64,000 bases of DNA from assembly GCF_054482595.1 (NCBI RefSeq), contig NZ_CM137008.1. One strand, written 5' to 3'. Below are positions 34,845 to 44,224 of this stretch, piece by piece (within the stretch, counting starts at the first letter, position 1; each line of letters opens with the position of its first letter). The position numbers and the translations under genes were made by a program. Below the pieces are notes generated by a model. That model had not been told where the DNA came from. It searched no databases and was given only the letters and a program-made list of their open reading frames with translations.

Positions 34845-36263
34845 TTATTTCCCCTTCCGCGCCGCCTCATACGCTGCCAACGTTTGTACTCTCGCCTCTT
34901 TGTGCTCGACTATCGGTTGCGGATAATCCAGCTTCACACCTGCTTTCTCAGCCCACTTCCACGGCTCATGCACCGATTTCCCCGGTACATTGCGCAGTTC
35001 CGGTAGCCACTGGCGGATAAACTCGCCTTCGCGGTCAAATTTCTCGCCCTGGGTTGTCGGGTTGAAAATACGAAAATACGGCGCTGCATCAGTACCCGTA
35101 GAAGCCGCCCACTGCCAGCCACCGTTATTGGCTGCCGAATCACCATCAATCAGCTGCGACATGAAATATCGCTCGCCTTCGCGCCAGTTGATCAACAAAT
35201 CTTTCACCAGAAAACTGGCTGTAATCATCCGTAGCCTGTTATGCATCCAGCCAGTGCTGTTAAGCTGACGCATGGCAGCATCGACAATCGGGTATCCCGT
35301 TTTGCCTTCCTGCCAGGCCTGTAAATGTGCGGGATTGCTCTGCCACTGCACACGATCCGTCCAGGCAATAAATGGACGATGTTTACACAACGAGGGGTGA
35401 TACGTTATCAGGTGACGGTAAAACTCGCGCCAGATCAGCTCATTAAGCCAGACACTACCGGCCCCACCGTCCAGCGCCTGCGGCTGTTCCGCCAACAGGC
35501 GATGCAAACACTGGCGAGGTGATAACCCGCCCGTTGCCAGGCTGGCGGACAAACGGCTGGTGCCTTCCACTGCCGGAAAATCTCGTTGTTGCTCATACTC
35601 TCCGGCACCGTTCTGGCAAAACTGGCGTAATTGCGCAATCGCCGCTTTTTCTTCCACCGGGAAATGCGCAGTATCGAAAGACTGACGAGGATAATTTAGC
35701 GTAATGGATGGCGCGGGCTTTATCGATCCGCTACTACGAACTTTTGGTGCAGCGACGCACTCCGGCATCCCTTCCCGCAGCCGTTTCAGCCAGGCATTCT
35801 TAAAAGGCGTAAAGACTTTGTACATCTCGTGATTGCCAGTCATCACCGCCCCCGGCGGCAGGATCACGCTGTCATCAAATCCTTCACACACCACGTTACG
35901 CAGCGCTCTTTCAACGTCCACATCCCGCGCCCGCTCATTCACCTCATACTGATAGTTATAAAAAAGATGAGTAACGCTGTTTTCCGCGCACACCTGTTTA
36001 ACTAATTCGACGCTGGCGACAAAGTCATCCACTTCACGGAACAATAAAGGAATACCTTTTTCCGCCAGCGCGATTTGTAGCCCGTTCAGTTGAGCATTGA
36101 TAAGTTCAGCCTGACGCGGCGACATATTATGCGCCGCCCACTGGCGTGGTGTAGCGATATACAACGCCAGCACGCGTGCAGACGAATTGCGGCAGGCGGC
36201 AGCCAGCGCGAGATTATCGTGCAGACGTAAATCCTGGCGAAACCAGACCAGATGGGTAGTCAT
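34845..36263 (-). CDS. phr: Deoxyribodipyrimidine photolyase
   Basis: 472 aa, MTTHLVWFRQDLRLHDNLALAAACRNSSARVLALYIATPRQWAAH... Confidence 0.96.
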   Translation of the reverse strand: MTTHLVWFRQDLRLHDNLALAAACRNSSARVLALYIATPRQWAAHNMSPRQAELINAQLNGLQIALAEKGIPLLFREVDDFVASVELVKQVCAENSVTHLFYNYQYEVNERARDVDVERALRNVVCEGFDDSVILPPGAVMTGNHEMYKVFTPFKNAWLKRLREGMPECVAAPKVRSSGSIKPAPSITLNYPRQSFDTAHFPVEEKAAIAQLRQFCQNGAGEYEQQRDFPAVEGTSRLSASLATGGLSPRQCLHRLLAEQPQALDGGAGSVWLNELIWREFYRHLITYHPSLCKHRPFIAWTDRVQWQSNPAHLQAWQEGKTGYPIVDAAMRQLNSTGWMHNRLRMITASFLVKDLLINWREGERYFMSQLIDGDSAANNGGWQWAASTGTDAAPYFRIFNPTTQGEKFDREGEFIRQWLPELRNVPGKSVHEPWKWAEKAGVKLDYPQPIVEHKEARVQTLAAYEAARKGK

Positions 36264-36769
36264 AAAACTCCTGAATGGCGCAAGTTAATCACACGCGGCC
36301 AAAGTTCGAAATAACGCTGCCCTGAAAGCCAGGCGTCAGGATAAAGCGCCATATAGTGTTTGATACGCATCAGCGGCGCAAGAAGCGGTTGCTCGCCACG
36401 GCGATAACTGTCGATAAGCGCTGCCAGCTGCTGGCGTTCTGTGGAATCAATATGCGGGCGAAAATAACCCTGAACGTGCATCAAAACGTTGGTGTGATCT
36501 CGCGGGTTGGCAGGATGAGAAAGCAAAACAATTACGCGTTGGTAGTACTGGTTGTAATAGTCATCCAGATTTTGCCACCGATGAATATCAGCCACAAACG
36601 GGCCAAGTTTGCGGTATTCCGGCTGGGAATGCGCCAGAAAGACGAGTTTATAGCGGCTGTGATAATCGAGAAGCGCCCCGCGCGTTAAGCCTCGCTCTTT
36701 AAGACGGTGTAACTCCTGCAAAGCAAAAATGCGGATAAGGGTGCTGTCATCAAATCGTTGTAGATTCAT
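36260..36769 (-). CDS. ybgA: DUF1722 protein, co-transcribed with phr
   Basis: 169 aa; 4-nt overlap with the phr start. Confidence 0.9.
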   Translation of the reverse strand: MNLQRFDDSTLIRIFALQELHRLKERGLTRGALLDYHSRYKLVFLAHSQPEYRKLGPFVADIHRWQNLDDYYNQYYQRVIVLLSHPANPRDHTNVLMHVQGYFRPHIDSTERQQLAALIDSYRRGEQPLLAPLMRIKHYMALYPDAWLSGQRYFELWPRVINLRHSGVL

Positions 36770-36942
36770 TACTGCTCCTGAACGGTTTACAGGAGTAAGT
36801 GTAGACGATGGTAAATGAATTTTGTGGGGTTATGCTTTCTTCCCTACCAAGCTGTTATATCCAGTTCAAAAACAATCATTTTACATCATCATCAAAGCAG
36901 CGAATACTTGACCGATTGGTAGTACCGCTGCATATTTCACCA

Positions 36943-37200
36943 TCAATTATATTTTATAATTTGTTGTATTGCTGACTTTATATTGCCAATGACATCCTCA
37001 TCATTAAATTCATTTAATATATTTTTTAGAATAGGATGTAGTTTAATATCACCTAAAATACCTGCCAAAATAATAACTTCATCAAAAATTATGTTTTTTT
37101 GCAGTTCATAAATTATAGCAGTTATAACACGATTATCTTTTCTTTCTGCCAGTCCGCTTATAGCTTCAATTCTGGCACAATCATTCTTATCTGTCAGCAT
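36943..37200 (-). CDS. Hypothetical 85-aa ORF with HEAT/PBS-lyase-like repeat character; possibly a gene fragment
   Basis: AT-rich ORF just downstream of the H-rpt transposase gene; repeat-like segments (ARIEAISGLAERKDNRVITAIIYELQ). Weak support. Confidence 0.3.
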   Translation of the reverse strand: MLTDKNDCARIEAISGLAERKDNRVITAIIYELQKNIIFDEVIILAGILGDIKLHPILKNILNEFNDEDVIGNIKSAIQQIIKYN

Positions 37201-37212
37201 TCCAGGGCAAGA

Positions 37213-38349
37213 TTACGAAAGCCCGCTCCCCGCAAGGACTGACGCCAGATAGTTTCTGTCCATGGCTGCTTTTCGCATCTTACGTCTTAACCCTGCCTTG
37301 AATACCTTATCATTCGTCAAAATATTAATAGCAATGTGCCGTATCCCTGAAAATAATTCTGCTGCATTTCCTCTTCTTATTTTGCAGTCGTCTTCATTCA
37401 TTACCACGTCCAGACGCCAGTGCAGCTTATTCTCCACGTGCCAGTGGTTTCGGATTGCTGTGGCGAACTTCTCTGCGGTTAAATCAGCAGAACTGATATA
37501 ATATCTGACCGTCATTTCTGGCTCTTTCTTTTGTTCTGCTATTATGGACCGAAAGGAGACTGCCACGCATAATTTCTTCAGCCCTTTCCATTCAAACGTG
37601 AAATCAATAAGTTCATCAGGGACATCGCAAACATTATGAAGACGGATCTCTTCTCTGCCGTGACTCTTTTCACTCATTGCGTAACTGTCATGCTCTGGAT
37701 TATTTAATTCTTTCAGTGGAAATTTTTCCTCAAAGGCTTTATTAAGCCGCCCCTGATTTCCTTTTACAGCGAATAAATAATCACCGCCCTGTTTTTGTAT
37801 CTTCTCTGCGATATCTTTCTGGCAACCCATCGCATCAGTTGTGATAATTTTTCCTTTAATATCCAGCATGTTAAGAAGTTCAGGGATAGCTGTAATCTCA
37901 TTAGATTTCTCATCCGTCTTGATCTGTCCGATGACCAGACTGTGCATTGTTGAGAACGCACTAATGACATGAATCGCTCCCCTGCGGCGACTCTTGTCAT
38001 AAGAGTGCCGGAGCGTTTTTCCATCAATTGCAATGACGTCTTTATCATCTGAAGAATGGCAGTCACGCATCCAGTTAATAAAGCACTCGTGAAATTTTGC
38101 AGGACTGATACAGGATACAACTCTGGCAATGGTATCGTGAACAGGAATACCATTTTCAAAATCACCATATTGCTTCAAAAAATCGAGATGTGTTTCCCCA
38201 AAATCCTCTATATCTTCCCAGCCTTCTGCACCAGAAATAACGGCACAAATAGTCAACAGTAGAATATCCGATAATTTATGCTCCACTTTCCAGGCTTGTC
38301 TGTAATCAGGGATAATAGAAATATGTTCCATCAATTTTTTAAGTTCCAT
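37213..38349 (-). mobile_element. H-rpt (H repeat-associated) element of an Rhs locus: intact 378-aa ISAs1-family transposase-like ORF
   Basis: 378 aa, [64 protein letters not shown]... matches the YhhI/H-rpt protein family; element ends not determined. Confidence 0.85.
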
Positions 38350-38987
38350 TTTGTTCTCCTTAATTATGTAAGGAGTATTTGATCATGTATAAGCAATAAA
38401 AAACAGCTTCAGGTAATGAGGAATATCTCAATTTTTAAACATAAAATGCGAATTATTTAGTACAAAAAGTGAACTTCTGATGATCTTTCCCTGTGATTGC
38501 TTCCCGTTTCCCGATACGGCGGCGCGGGGAGTCATAAAGGTAAGAAATTTCCAGCAGTACAGCGTCCTATTGTTCACGGCGGTAATGCACCAACCAGTAT
38601 TGGCTATCGTAGTGATAACCGTGTAACCTGCCGCCGCATCGCGTATCTAATGTTCATTCTTTTCCATAAACCGTCCGTACACATTGTGATAGTAAAAATA
38701 CAATACATCTTCGCTGATGCGGTTATTCTGCTGCATGTGGGGAGCGCCGAATACTGCTCCCGGTATGGCCAGTAATTACTATTTAGTACGACGTTAGGGG
38801 GAGTCACTTAATCTCACAGATACTTCAAGTAACAGATGAAAATCGCTCCTGAAATGAAAAAAGAAATTTTTTTGAATGTGTTCCTGTCAAATCAAGTGGT
38901 TTTTTCGTCGATATGTAGAGTCATATTGTACACAAAATTGTTACGAAACACACCTTGGTAAAATATTTGAATCGACTGTACAGTGGA

Positions 38988-39290
38988 TTATTTTGTGTGT
39001 ATTACATTCAACACTTGCCCATCTTTTTTCGCTATTAGTATTGTAAAATTTCCTCCTAAAGTCTTCGGTTGTTTTCCCTCGATTTTCCAACAATTATTGT
39101 CATCTGTAATACTATATGGTTTCTGAAATTCTGCTTTTTCTTTCCCGTATACATATTTAATGTAAACATATGATAATTCCAAAGCCATTTCACGACTATT
39201 TACTAAAATTTCCACTGGATTTTCTTTTCCAAATACTTGTTATGATATTGTAAACAATATCATAATAAGTAATATTAGTGAGTTTCTCAT
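38988..39290 (-). pseudogene. Small secreted-protein ORF interrupted by an in-frame TAA at codon 17 (plus-strand 39240-39242)
   Basis: From ATG (39288-39290, minus strand) the frame reads MRNSLILLIMILFTIS-TAA-QVFGKENPVEILVNSREMALELSYVYIKYVYGKEKAEFQK...HTK. A signal-peptide-like N-terminus continues in the same frame across a single stop. Confidence 0.5.
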
Positions 39291-39458
39291 GTTCTACACC
39301 TATCGAATCTCAAAAGCTGTGGGTAAAACATTACATTCAGAATATATGATATTCTTACCATCGGAATCCATTTTTCCAAATCGACCTTCTGGTGTACCTG
39401 GATATCCATTAAGAACATGTTTTTCCGAATGGTTAATTTATTCTCTCAGGAAGATGTT

Positions 39459-40028
39459 TTATTTTTCTTCACTACGAAGCAGTTCATGCTGTATTTTTGT
39501 TAAACATTCGTAAGACTCATCTTTGTTCGGGAGATGTGCTGTCATTCGAGCATAAGTTGGCTTCTCATCTTTAAAATATTTAACCATGATTGAATTATCA
39601 AGGACTGCCAACAACTGAGCTGGATCACTGCTCTTTTTTTGATAGATACCCGCTCTTATATAACTTCTAAACCGATCGCCGAGAAACGCCGTTTTTTCTG
39701 CTGTATTTATCAACTCCTGCAACGTTCCTTTGATGGCATGATTTTCATTAAGGCGTAGTGACCCGACACGAATTAAGAGTCTCGCCCCGCTTGATGTGAA
39801 TTTATTATTTTTACATGTACCCAGTTCTGTTTGCCAATAATACTCACCGATGTCCTCATTCTGATACCATCTCCACATGGCTTTATTATTTAAGACAGGA
39901 AACGCGGAAAAAATAGTACCCTTAGCGAAAATAGTAAAACAATCATGATCTTTAGCTTGTATTTCGCAATCAGCTATAACACCAAAATTAACAAATATCA
40001 TCAGCAAAAAGAACAAAACTCTTTTCAT
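39459..40028 (-). CDS. Putative Rhs immunity protein (periplasmic; signal peptide)
   Basis: 189 aa, [19 protein letters not shown]|DCEIQ...; its ATG overlaps the rhs stop (ATGA); AT-rich like the Rhs C-terminal tip. It may correspond to K-12 ybfC, but this was not verified. Confidence 0.65.
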
Positions 40029-43000
40029 TTTCTTATTCCTCTCGATGTTCTCTGTTTCATTTTAGCTAAAATTTCACCCAAATCATCTATCCCTGCTGTT
40101 GCTGGCCCATCGGGTTTATTAATGTCTGGGAATAAATAGGGTTCTGCACAAGTATATCCTGGTGGTAATTGAGTTGTTGGCCAATTTGTCTGTGGCAGGT
40201 AATCACTTGCTGTCTTTGTATCCATCCCTGGATACTGGGGATCATCCTGTGGCGTACAAGTCAGATTTGGTTTTACCCACTTCCTGCAATACAGTGTGTA
40301 GTCGTAAGGGCTTAATGCTCTGAAGAATGTTTTGAAAACATTAGGCGCACTACTGGCCTGGTCAATAGGATATGGCAGTCTTAATTGTTTCGCTATGTCT
40401 GGCAATTTACTTGGATCGGGCGTAGGCGGTTTGTTGGGTCTCGCTCCATATCCGCCATTATTTAAGTGTCCATATTTTGATGCCAGTCCCATTGAATCTA
40501 TATACTGAACCGGATTCAACGGATACTGATAAAAATTCCATCCCCCCTTCAGTCCAATCGGATCCTGAGTGATATACCTCCCCTGCAGCGGGTCATAATA
40601 GCGGTGGCGGTTGTAATACAGGCCGGACTCCTCATCATACTGCTGACCCGGCAGGCGGATGAGCTGCTGCAGCTGGTGCGGGTTCTCTTCATTCAGCTGG
40701 TTACCCCATTCATCGTATTCTGCGTACCACGCTGTTGTCCCTTCCGTGCTGATAAGCGCCAGCGGCAGGCCGCGATGGTCGCAGTGGTACAGGTGGATTT
40801 TTCGCGCCGGCGTGTACACCGGGTCCATCTGGTTTTGCATCTGCTTCACCGTCAGGCCGCACGATGCCAGCCAGCGGCGGCTTTCCTCACTCACCCGGTC
40901 AGCCAGGATTTCACTTTCCAGCCGGTCGAGCATCTGCACCAGCACCGGCGGGAACACCACACTGCCACCGTCTTCACCGCCGGACTGCTGAAGGGCATCC
41001 GCCAGGCTGCGGCGCTGCGTTCTGGCCAGTTCACCGGTGGCAGTTTCAACTCTGATGAGTGGTGTGAAGCTCCCCGGCTGATAAATCGTCTGGATGCGGG
41101 TTCTGTCGTTCTGTATCGTGGTCAGGCGGTCGCCATCCCAGCCGTACCAGGTCACTTGCGGTTTCCGTGACAGCGACATCCAGCCCGTCAGGTCCCGTTC
41201 ACGTCGCCATACCCGTTTTGCCACCCTGCGGCCCAGCGGGTCGTAAAGATAGCGGCTTTCGACCAGCGGCTCTGCATATTGTGTCCGCGTGTAGTGCACC
41301 AGCCGGTGCTGACTGTCGTAATGGTACCGGTGGGTGCGCTCATCATCCGTGCGGATAACCCCTTCCGGGATGAGGTCGGTTTTCTCTGTCAGTCTGCCGT
41401 GACGGTCATACCGGTAAAGATAGTGCGCGTCACGGGCGATACGGTTATCCGGCCACATGCTGAGGGTGCTGTCCGGGTGCAGCTCCGGGTCGGGCAGGCG
41501 GTTACCTGCCGGGTCCGTGGCATACGGGATGCGGATATCAAGGTTCGCTGCCGTGGTGTGAACGCCGGTCAGCCTGCCGGAGTCGCTGTAGCTGTAACTC
41601 CGGGTATGGCGCGGGCTGCTGATGCGGATGAGTTCGCCGTTGTCGTTCCAGGTGTAATCGCGGTCAGACTGCAGGCTGTTCAGGTGCTGGCTCTGTAACT
41701 GCCCGGCAGGGGTATAAGCGGTGGTGAGTTCATAATGGCCGAAGCTGCGCAGCGTTTCCCGGTGCAGGCGGTCGCGGGTGAAATCCACCAGCGGTGTGTC
41801 GCCGAGCTTCATGCCTGACAGCCAGCCGCTGCCGTAGGTCAGCCATTCCACGGCGGGCAGGCTGTCCGGTATACAGCGGTTCGCCAGCCCCTGCGCGTTG
41901 TAAGCGTGTCTGGTCTCATGCTGCCAGAGCAGTGCTTCCGTCTGCGGGTGATGCACCGTCTGACGCTCACCGGTCAGGCGGCCTTTCTCATCATACCTGT
42001 AATGCACCGCTACCCGGTGCCCTTCGCTGATATGGCTGATGTCTGTCAGCCAGCCACGTTCGTCATACCGCCACCGCTCTGCGGTTTCACCCTTCACGGT
42101 GCGGTGCGTGAGGCGGTCTGCTTCGTCATAGTGCCAGTGGGTGACCAGACCCTCATCCTCGCTGCGGATAAGTTTGCCGGTCAGGTCGTGGTGATAATGC
42201 TGTGTGCGGCCGTCAAAGCCGGTTTCCTGTATCAGCCGGTCGAGTACATCGTAACGGAAGGTGGTGTGGCTGCCGTTTTCACTGGTCAGGCGGATGACCC
42301 GTCCGGCAGCATCGTATTCCATACTGCGCGTCAGACCGCCCTGCGTGGTACGGATGGCCTTTCCCCACGCATCGTACTGTGTCCCGTTTCTGCTGCCGTC
42401 CGGAGCAATGACGGCGGTCAGGTCACCGGCGGCGTTGTATTCATACCGCATTTCATGGCCCTGCATGTCTTTCACGGCAATTAACCGTCCACGGCTGTCG
42501 TATGCGCGGTACTGACTCAGCCCTTCCTCGCGGTGCACCGCCGTCATCTGCCCGAAACGGTCATGGTCATAACGGGTTACATAACCGGAACAGTCGGTGA
42601 AGCTCAGCAACTGGCCGTAACGGCTCCACGTCATGGTTTTCCGGCTGCCGGTGGCATCGTCCGTTGCGCAGGGTAAGTCACTGTGTGGATTATCATAACG
42701 GTAGCGGGTGATATCGCCGTCAGGGGCGGTTTCCTGAATCAGACGGCCGGATTCATCATATTCCCGGCGCATTTCCAGCCCGTCAGGCCCGGTGGCTGAC
42801 GTTAACTGGCTGTGGTGGTTATAGTAAAATGCCGATGCCCTGCCATCCGGTGTGGTGATGCGCGTGATGAGTCCCGTCACCACATCCGGGCTGTATTCTG
42901 TTGTCCGGCCTGCGGCATCCGTCTGTGCCTTAAGCCTGCCCACCGCATCAAACTGACTCTGCGTGACGCTGCCGTCCGCGTGTTCCTTTTTCACCACCCG

Positions 43001-44224
43001 CTTCAGCCCGCCTTCGCCCTGCGTGTGCAGCACTTCACGGCGGTCCAGGCTGTCGGTGATGGTGATGCGGTTTTGCTCATAACAGTAGGTGTAGCTTAAG
43101 CCCGCCGGGTTAAGCTGCTCTGTCACCCGCCCGTCGCTGTCGTAACGGTAACGGATTTCCGGTCGGCCCGTGTGACGGTGCGCCACCATCCGGCCCCGGT
43201 ATTTATCATCGTAAGTAAAGCTGCGCACCTGTGTATTGCTGCGGTCATACACCGCCGCCAGTTCGCCGCGTGGCGTCCAGCCATAGCGCACCAGCGGCGC
43301 GGCTGGCAGGTTGTCCGGGTATTCCGGGTCGTGCGTCAGCCACACGGCAGACAGACGGATGCCGTTGTCCCGGCCATATTCGGTGTAACCCGGCAGGGTA
43401 TCAGGAAAAGCGGACGGTTCCGTCCCGCCGGAAGAGGCCTGCTGCCGGGCTTCTTCTGCCCGCTGCGCCTGCGTGGTCAGTACCAGCCGGAAGTGACGCC
43501 CGGCACCATCCGTCACGCCGGTGATTTCGCCGCTGAATTCACCGGCGGCTTCGCGGTGGAACGTCTGTGTGCGCCCGAAGCGGTCCACCAGCCCGGTCAG
43601 TACCCGGTACGGCGGCAGCGGCGCAGGCAGCACCTCATCCGCTTCCGGCACCCGCTCACACCAGCCGAGCAGCCACCACGGCCCCTGCGGACTGTTTGTC
43701 GCCAGATAACGATGCGGACTTAAGCGGAGTTCTTCCGGCAGCGCCTGCCAGAGTGCGGCCAGCCGGTGACCTTCATCCAGTTTCGCCACGCCGCCGCGCA
43801 CCAGCCACAGTGACTCGCTGCGGCTGTAACCGTCCTCACCGGGAAACAGGTGCTCAAAATACAGGCTTCTGCCGCCGTTATCACTGAGTATCAGTGTGTT
43901 ATCGCGCAGCTGTAAGCGGATATCCGCAGGCATTTTCCAGCCGGGGCCGAGGCTCCCCACCGGCGCGGGCGTTTTTGTCCGGTAACTGCTGTAGGTGCGG
44001 GAGAGAATGAACGGCAGCGGGGCGGGCAGGGCGATGTCGGTTTCACCGGGAAGGACCTTTGCACCGAGCAGCGGATTGACCGGATGGCCGGACGTCACCC
44101 CGCCGGGGCACACCGAACAGGCCACGCCGGTGGGGGCACCAATACGTACCCCGGCTGAACCCTGGACAATGCTACCGCCATACTGCGTCATGTCGCCCTG
44201 ACGCGCCGCCGGTTTTCCGCTCAT
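40025..44224 (-). CDS. rhsC: Rhs family protein (RhsC-type): PAAR-like N-terminus, YD-repeat shell, variable C-terminal toxin tip
   Basis: 1399 aa, [42 protein letters not shown]...; many YD/RYxYD repeats; core ends near ...[16 protein letters not shown] (40484-40498), followed by a 152-aa AT-rich tip (40028-40483). Confidence 0.93.

Follow-up and report, generated by a model that had tools for sequence, protein, structure and literature searches.

Gene content of the RhsC locus

The window analysed in this study is a stretch of 64,000 nucleotides from contig NZ_CM137008.1 (assembly GCF_054482595.1). The region around the element described here was recognized as the E. coli RhsC locus, lying on the minus strand, on the basis of the list of open reading frames (ORFs), of annotated genomes that are 100% identical (for example, strain XH990) and of the K-12 map. 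Read along that strand, the order is kdp, ybfA, rhsC, ybfC, small AT-rich ORFs, a 378-aa ORF, an 85-aa ORF, ybgA, phr and dtpD. The 378-aa ORF is the transposase gene of a complete ISEc1 (H-rpt) element, of which the window holds one copy only. Coordinates of all features are listed in Table 1.

The initial annotation had described the flanks of the transposase gene as AT-rich, which agrees with the base composition: GC content was 0.31 at positions 36800-37199 and 0.31-0.39 at 38800-40000, compared with 0.60-0.68 in the rhs core. The small AT-rich genes and fragments of tips that follow the main rhs gene form an array of displaced Rhs tip/immunity modules, with homologues that are attached to full rhs genes elsewhere; a YhhH-like NTF2 ORF, a toxin-tip pseudogene and a yibA-like remnant are all present in it.

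Over window positions 39420-44224 (minus strand), a full-length rhsC joins the K-12 rhsC core (96.6% identity, to window position 40487) to another C-terminal tip, the one which K-12 carries in the orphan pseudogene ybfO and which is followed by ybfC (97.7% identity over 41530-39420). The rhsC tip of K-12 itself and ybfB are absent from the window. The two rhsC genes clearly illustrate how tips are displaced or reloaded from strain to strain. At the other side of the region, the intergenic space between dtpD and phr contains an Rfam match to the ES036 (CssrF) sRNA (34740-34782, minus strand; 73 bits against a gathering score of 37.6). A scan for promoters and terminators returned 10 sites, roughly the shuffled expectation (mean 6.1, sd 2.4), and none of them was taken as evidence.

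Table 1. Features of the RhsC locus in the window, with their positions and the observations on which each assignment is based
Feature	Position	Strand	Basis or remark
rhsC	40025-44224	-	
ybfC	39459-40028	-	
Orphan NTF2-fold immunity ORF, 75 aa, N-terminally shortened, YhhH-like	38988-39215	-	Pfam Imm-NTF2-2, 9e-21
Decayed frame, probably an orphan toxin tip, one internal stop (...GYTVITTIANTGWCITAVNNRTLYCWKFLTFMTPRAAVSGNGKQS)	38494-38800	-	Protein-like; absent from RefSeq annotation
Complete ISEc1 (H-rpt), ISAs1 family, 1291 bp	37203-38493	-	Homology limits against K-12 and Sakai copies
Left terminal inverted repeat CAGGGAAAGAT	38483-38493	-	First base of homology in all copies
AGGAG ribosome-binding site	38356-38360	-	6 nt before the transposase ATG
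Intact 378-aa DDE transposase gene	37213-38349	-	Pfam and NCBIfam matches, YhhI identity
Right terminal inverted repeat ATCTTGCCCTG (reverse complement CAGGGCAAGAT)	37203-37213	-	Overlaps the transposase stop by 1 nt
295-bp segment holding the yibA-like remnant	36908-37202	-	In 35 of 5,426 complete E. coli genomes
85-aa ORF, apparent 3' remnant of a yibA-family HEAT-repeat gene	36943-37200	-	PRK09687, YibA identity; 5' side cut by the ISEc1 right end
ybgA	36260-36769	-	

A complete ISEc1 element and its relatives

The initial annotation had left the ends of the element undefined. Here they were set by aligning the window with the copies in K-12 RhsB, RhsE and RhsC, O157 Sakai and E. coli B. 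In every comparison, homology starts at window position 38493 and stops at 37203, and the sequences outside these limits are unrelated between loci; the end coordinate given earlier, 38460, was 33 bp short of the true end. The orthologous 1291-bp stretch in O157 Sakai is annotated 'ISEc1 Family: ISAs1'. The two ends, CAGGGAAAGAT and CAGGGCAAGAT, have CAGGG termini and match as an inverted repeat at 10 of 11 positions. A repeat search with 8-nt seeds did not report this inverted repeat, whose longest exact run is 5 nt. A repeat of this length carries no significance by itself, and it is the comparison of copies that fixes the limits. Elements of the ISAs1 family, as described in ISfinder, are about 1.2-1.5 kb long and have short terminal inverted repeats that start with CAGGG, and both the size and the ends of the window element fit this description.

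The family generates target-site duplications of 8-10 bp. We looked for such a duplication at the window copy and found none, the flanks (...GCAATCA| and |GAATGCT) sharing no repeat. None was found at the RhsB, RhsE, Sakai and E. coli B copies either (five copies inspected, including that of the window), and the ISEc1 flanks tabulated for another strain likewise show no target duplication (PMC6963479). The missing duplication is typical of ISEc1 copies and is no argument against membership in the ISAs1 family.

The transposase gene is intact. Its product combines in a single ORF the two Pfam domains that mark the family, DDE_Tnp_1_assoc (PF13808; 7e-34, residues 8-94) and DDE_Tnp_1 (PF01609; 5e-31, residues 102-343), and matches the NCBIfam ISAs1 family transposase profile NF033564 from the first to the last of its 314 positions, with a score of 417 bits (cut-off 70, E 4e-125). 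It is identical to K-12 YhhI at 374 of 378 residues (99%) without gaps, and the ORF is therefore full length, as had been proposed for this H-rpt transposase. D109, D172 and E306 are candidate catalytic residues, inferred from the motif. RefSeq labels the gene as an ISEc1 transposase; the feature is already known, annotated and ordinary.

At the nucleotide level, the element is 98.1% identical to both the K-12 RhsB H-rpt (yhhI) and the annotated ISEc1 at the same locus in Sakai, which identifies it as the same element as reference ISEc1. Identity is 97.75% to the E. coli B copy, 97.75% (97.7%) to the K-12 RhsE copy (ydcC) and 95.7% to ybfL. Divergence from the other full-length copies examined amounts to 1.9-2.3% (dS about 0.05-0.08) and includes several private substitutions, and variants are shared mosaically between ISEc1 copies. 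Comparison of the intact copies gave dS values of 0.05-0.08 and dN/dS ratios of 0.06-0.19 (dS 0.07-0.08 and dN/dS 0.06-0.10 for the window copy against other full-length copies). Substitution ratios of this kind show the imprint of purifying selection on the transposase protein among intact copies.

Comparison with copies at other Rhs loci put the intact ORF into perspective. The K-12 copies at RhsB (yhhI) and RhsE (ydcC) resemble the window copy in length (1291 bp), in their CAGGG termini, in the absence of a target duplication and in their orientation relative to the rhs gene, but they occupy different Rhs loci with different flanks and differ by about 2%, with private substitutions. Both carry intact 378-aa ORFs, and therefore an intact H-rpt gene is not unusual.

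At RhsC itself, the situation is different. The K-12 copies ybfQ, ybfL and ybfD, as well as their E. coli B equivalents, belong to the same element family and lie at the same ybfC-ybgA locus, but K-12 has three tandem degenerate copies there, namely a fragment of about 380 bp (ybfQ), a pseudogene (ybfL) and an internally deleted gene of 253 aa (ybfD), where the window has a single intact one. The fragmented K-12 copies mentioned in the initial annotation were thus found as described. We also looked for an identical intact K-12 copy at this position; all K-12 copies at RhsC are degenerate. In addition, K-12 RhsC has neither the yibA-like remnant nor the NTF2 and toxin-tip orphans of the window. 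O157:H7 Sakai comes closer, with a 1291-bp element at the same locus and the same upstream NTF2 immunity region (98.5% identity). However, its ISEc1 ORF is disrupted, and compared with the window it has about 480 bp more on the left, containing a DUF6258 gene, and has no 295-bp yibA-like segment on the right. Overall, the ISEc1 ORF at this locus is broken in K-12, E. coli B and O157, and intact in the lineage of the window.

Displaced Rhs modules on both sides of the element

On the left side, the element adjoins a decayed frame which is probably an unnamed orphan toxin tip and which the IS left end cuts two codons short of its stop. In E. coli B and Sakai, the frame runs on for these two codons and a DUF6258 gene comes next, a partner that is absent in the window; E. 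coli B additionally has an Rhs core fragment before its ISEc1. Both genomes continue into other DNA exactly at the left junction of the window. Further upstream lies the NTF2 ORF, 43% identical to the C-terminal half of K-12 YhhH and labelled 'NTF2 fold immunity protein' in RefSeq.

On the right side, the element adjoins the 85-aa ORF, which had been described as HEAT-repeat-like and, together with the AT-rich flanks, as a possible remnant of displaced cargo. Pfam gave no match for the ORF alone. On the other hand, it matched the NCBIfam model PRK09687 (YibA-type 'putative lyase') with an E-value of 1e-25 and 90.5 bits (cut-off 275), the match reaching from position 202 to position 283 of the 285-position profile, that is, as a fragment and not as a member protein. 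It is homologous to K-12 YibA, with 49% identity over 71 aa (YibA residues 200-270; E 1e-20). Relatives of 143-148 aa found by protein search carry the Pfam domains HEAT/HEAT_2, and a 202-aa reconstruction from longer relatives scored 210.6 bits with PRK09687 and matched the sequence of the YibA crystal structure (PDB 1OYZ) at 6e-41. In K-12, yibA (b3594) is the gene immediately after rhsA, and YibA has been reported to neutralise the growth inhibition caused by the C-terminal region of RhsA (PMC3150448). Together, the position of the NCBIfam match, the identity to YibA, the 1OYZ match and the reported RhsA-neutralising role of YibA identify the 85-aa ORF, by homology, as the tail of an Rhs immunity-type (YibA-family) gene and a truncated remnant of displaced Rhs cargo. 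Both earlier suggestions, the HEAT-repeat likeness and the displaced cargo, were therefore borne out, and the 'hypothetical protein' WP_000954499.1 of XH990, which is the product of this ORF, can be named accordingly as such a tail.

Although the ORF shares with YibA its occurrence in an Rhs locus, it corresponds to the last 30% or so of that protein, and its function is presumably lost. No cognate rhs tip lies directly upstream; that place is occupied by the IS. The ORF starts at an internal methionine 2 nt past the IS end, a residue conserved as M200 of YibA, and no Shine-Dalgarno sequence precedes its ATG. It lies in the frame of the transposase gene, four codons past the TAA stop of the latter (37201-37215, minus strand), which is probably a coincidence. 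The most likely status of the ORF is that of a non-functional leftover. In Sakai, where the 295-bp segment is missing, the right end of the IS joins window position 36907 directly.

Alleles of this region free of the IS were found in Logan assembly contigs (L007-L013), which share 88-91% identity with the window over the remnant and the first part of ybgA. In three of them (L007, L008 and L012), the gene adjoins ybgA and is continuous across the junction point (...CATTTATCA|GAATGCTGAC...). Even these IS-free alleles fall short of YibA at the 5' end, and they contain frameshifts or stops. The 5' half of the remnant gene had no match in the 5,426 complete E. coli genomes, which gave no filled and empty pair within the species, and it was also absent from the GTDB representative genomes in exact-pattern and peptide-pattern scans.

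A second yibA-family fragment directly abuts an ISEc1 end at K-12 RhsB, where the pseudogene yrhC (L003, 6888-7234) breaks off at the left end of the RhsB H-rpt. The two fragments contrast in most respects: yrhC is a 5' part (to about residue 115), lies left of the IS and is near-identical to K-12 yibA, whereas the window remnant is a 3' part (from residue 200), lies right of the IS and represents a divergent allele. One ancestral insertion into a single yibA was considered for both junctions and rejected, since the alleles are very different (near-identical to yibA versus 49% identity) and the breaks fall at different residues (about 115 versus 200). As Rhs tails contain few gene types, chance is a sufficient explanation for finding ISEc1 next to yibA fragments twice.

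The junctions at RhsC also vary between lineages. Comparison of the loci (L005, L006 and L002) placed the right end of ISEc1 near ybgA at window-equivalent position 37202 in the window, 36907 in Sakai and about 36858 in K-12 and E. coli B, all within about 350 bp. The left junctions are nested, with most of the flank kept in E. coli B, less in Sakai and least in the window. These series could reflect adjacent deletions anchored at the IS ends or independent events. The former reading, in which ISEc1 acts in place and such deletions eroded the orphan Rhs modules step by step, appears rather unlikely, as does a target preference behind the abutment to yibA fragments at two Rhs loci.

Origin and age of the arrangement

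ISEc1 is nearly universal in E. coli: it was found in 5,423 of the 5,426 complete genomes, which have up to 17 places with it (median 5). In contrast with this abundance stands its record on plasmids, where it was present in 25 of 72,556 records, several of them chromosome-sized. All four lineages compared here (the window, K-12, E. coli B and O157 Sakai) have ISEc1 at RhsC. The exact arrangement of IS and remnant was found in 35 of the 5,426 genomes, at 99-100% identity and from varied hosts; XH990 and O157:H16 Santai are two strains that have it. The corresponding count of the left junction was non-discriminating, because pieces up to about 560 bp apart were joined and O157-type loci were pooled with the window type.

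It is highly probable that the window contains an old, resident ISEc1 at the distal end of RhsC, whose right end lies in a yibA-family gene and for which the 85-aa ORF is a leftover. By analogy with other DDE/IS4-like elements, the DDE transposase would recognise and bind both CAGGG ends, cleave there and rejoin the element to a target. Next to ybgA, the right end would have come to lie inside a displaced orphan yibA-family immunity gene, of which the last 82 codons were left; the upstream part of this gene would have been lost, and the left end of the IS would have become joined to a different decayed toxin tip. Since the left flank is such a different orphan tip, the arrangement does not look like a simple insertion into one gene, and a flank deletion or a recombination between IS copies may be assumed to have occurred at least once after insertion, with insertion coming before deletion. 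In the lineage of the window, the transposase gene would be intact by chance, just like those at RhsB and RhsE of K-12. In practice, the main effect of ISEc1 here is structural, consisting of a truncated orphan immunity gene and a block of homology repeated at Rhs loci.

The initial annotation had taken the intact ORF as a possible mark of a more recently active element. A recent arrival would agree with the full-length ORF and its AGGAG ribosome-binding site, with the broken ORFs in the RhsC copies of K-12, E. coli B and Sakai, and with junctions that differ from lineage to lineage. Against it stand several private substitutions and the roughly 2% by which the copy differs from all others, an arrangement common to 35 genomes from varied hosts at 99-100% identity, and an ISEc1 at RhsC in all four lineages; the missing target duplication and the near-absence from plasmids point in the same direction, and K-12 has intact copies at RhsB and RhsE. 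Recent activity was thus not supported, and we regard it as very improbable. The evidence from sequence comparison indicates that the copies compared are old and that their protein is under purifying selection. Two observations count against reading them as entirely static, namely the up to 17 places in some genomes and the dN/dS ratios of 0.06-0.19, and the latter show that the protein has stayed functional, so that ISEc1 has likely been active in the past or is active on rare occasions. A previous report states that H-rpt has never been seen to transpose (PMC3032704).

Purifying selection among copies at three loci could also be expected if the transposase were domesticated or otherwise useful to the host, either as a portable homology block or as a nuclease, in both cases promoting the exchange and the erosion of Rhs tip/immunity cassettes and leaving nested junctions behind. 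The near-universal presence in E. coli, the orientation of the three K-12 copies examined (each like its rhs gene), the three right junctions within about 350 bp together with the nested left junctions at one locus, and the mosaic sharing of variants between copies would all be compatible with such a role. Nevertheless, the ORF is broken at RhsC in three of the four lineages, which argues against selection at the host level there, and ordinary deletions or independent insertions explain the junction series equally well; domestication appears very improbable. Even less credit can be given to a working small HEAT-repeat protein, for instance a minimal immunity factor, made from the 85-aa ORF by read-out from the IS. 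In favour of such a protein are the open frame beginning at a methionine conserved in YibA (M200), the transposase frame that it shares four codons after the stop, and its annotation as a CDS in RefSeq. On the other hand, the ORF covers 82 of 285 family positions (90 bits against the cut-off of 275) and has no Shine-Dalgarno sequence before its ATG, no cognate toxin is present, more than 99% of E. coli genomes lack the ORF, and its relatives in other contigs contain stops or frameshifts. This makes a functional product extremely unlikely, and the old resident element with a leftover of a yibA-family gene remains the preferred reading.

The element is the long-known Rhs H-repeat and has little significance beyond annotation. 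What our analysis adds is the exact limits of ISEc1 in the window and the identification of a 'hypothetical protein' as a YibA-type tail, and it offers a further small illustration of how displaced tip and immunity modules build up in Rhs loci and are worn away there. Should the junction series represent IS-anchored deletions, it would speak indirectly for activity of ISEc1, whose mobility has never been demonstrated.

Strain XH990, whose sequence does not differ from that of the window in the region described, has two further ISEc1 places, which were sought at other Rhs loci. The nikR-yhhJ interval of this strain contains no RhsB. Its RhsE locus (L016, 2,507,597-2,514,392) has no ISEc1 and contains a VgrG gene followed by the gene for a full-length RHS core protein, whereas RhsE of K-12 consists of a truncated rhsE and two H-rpt-type elements.
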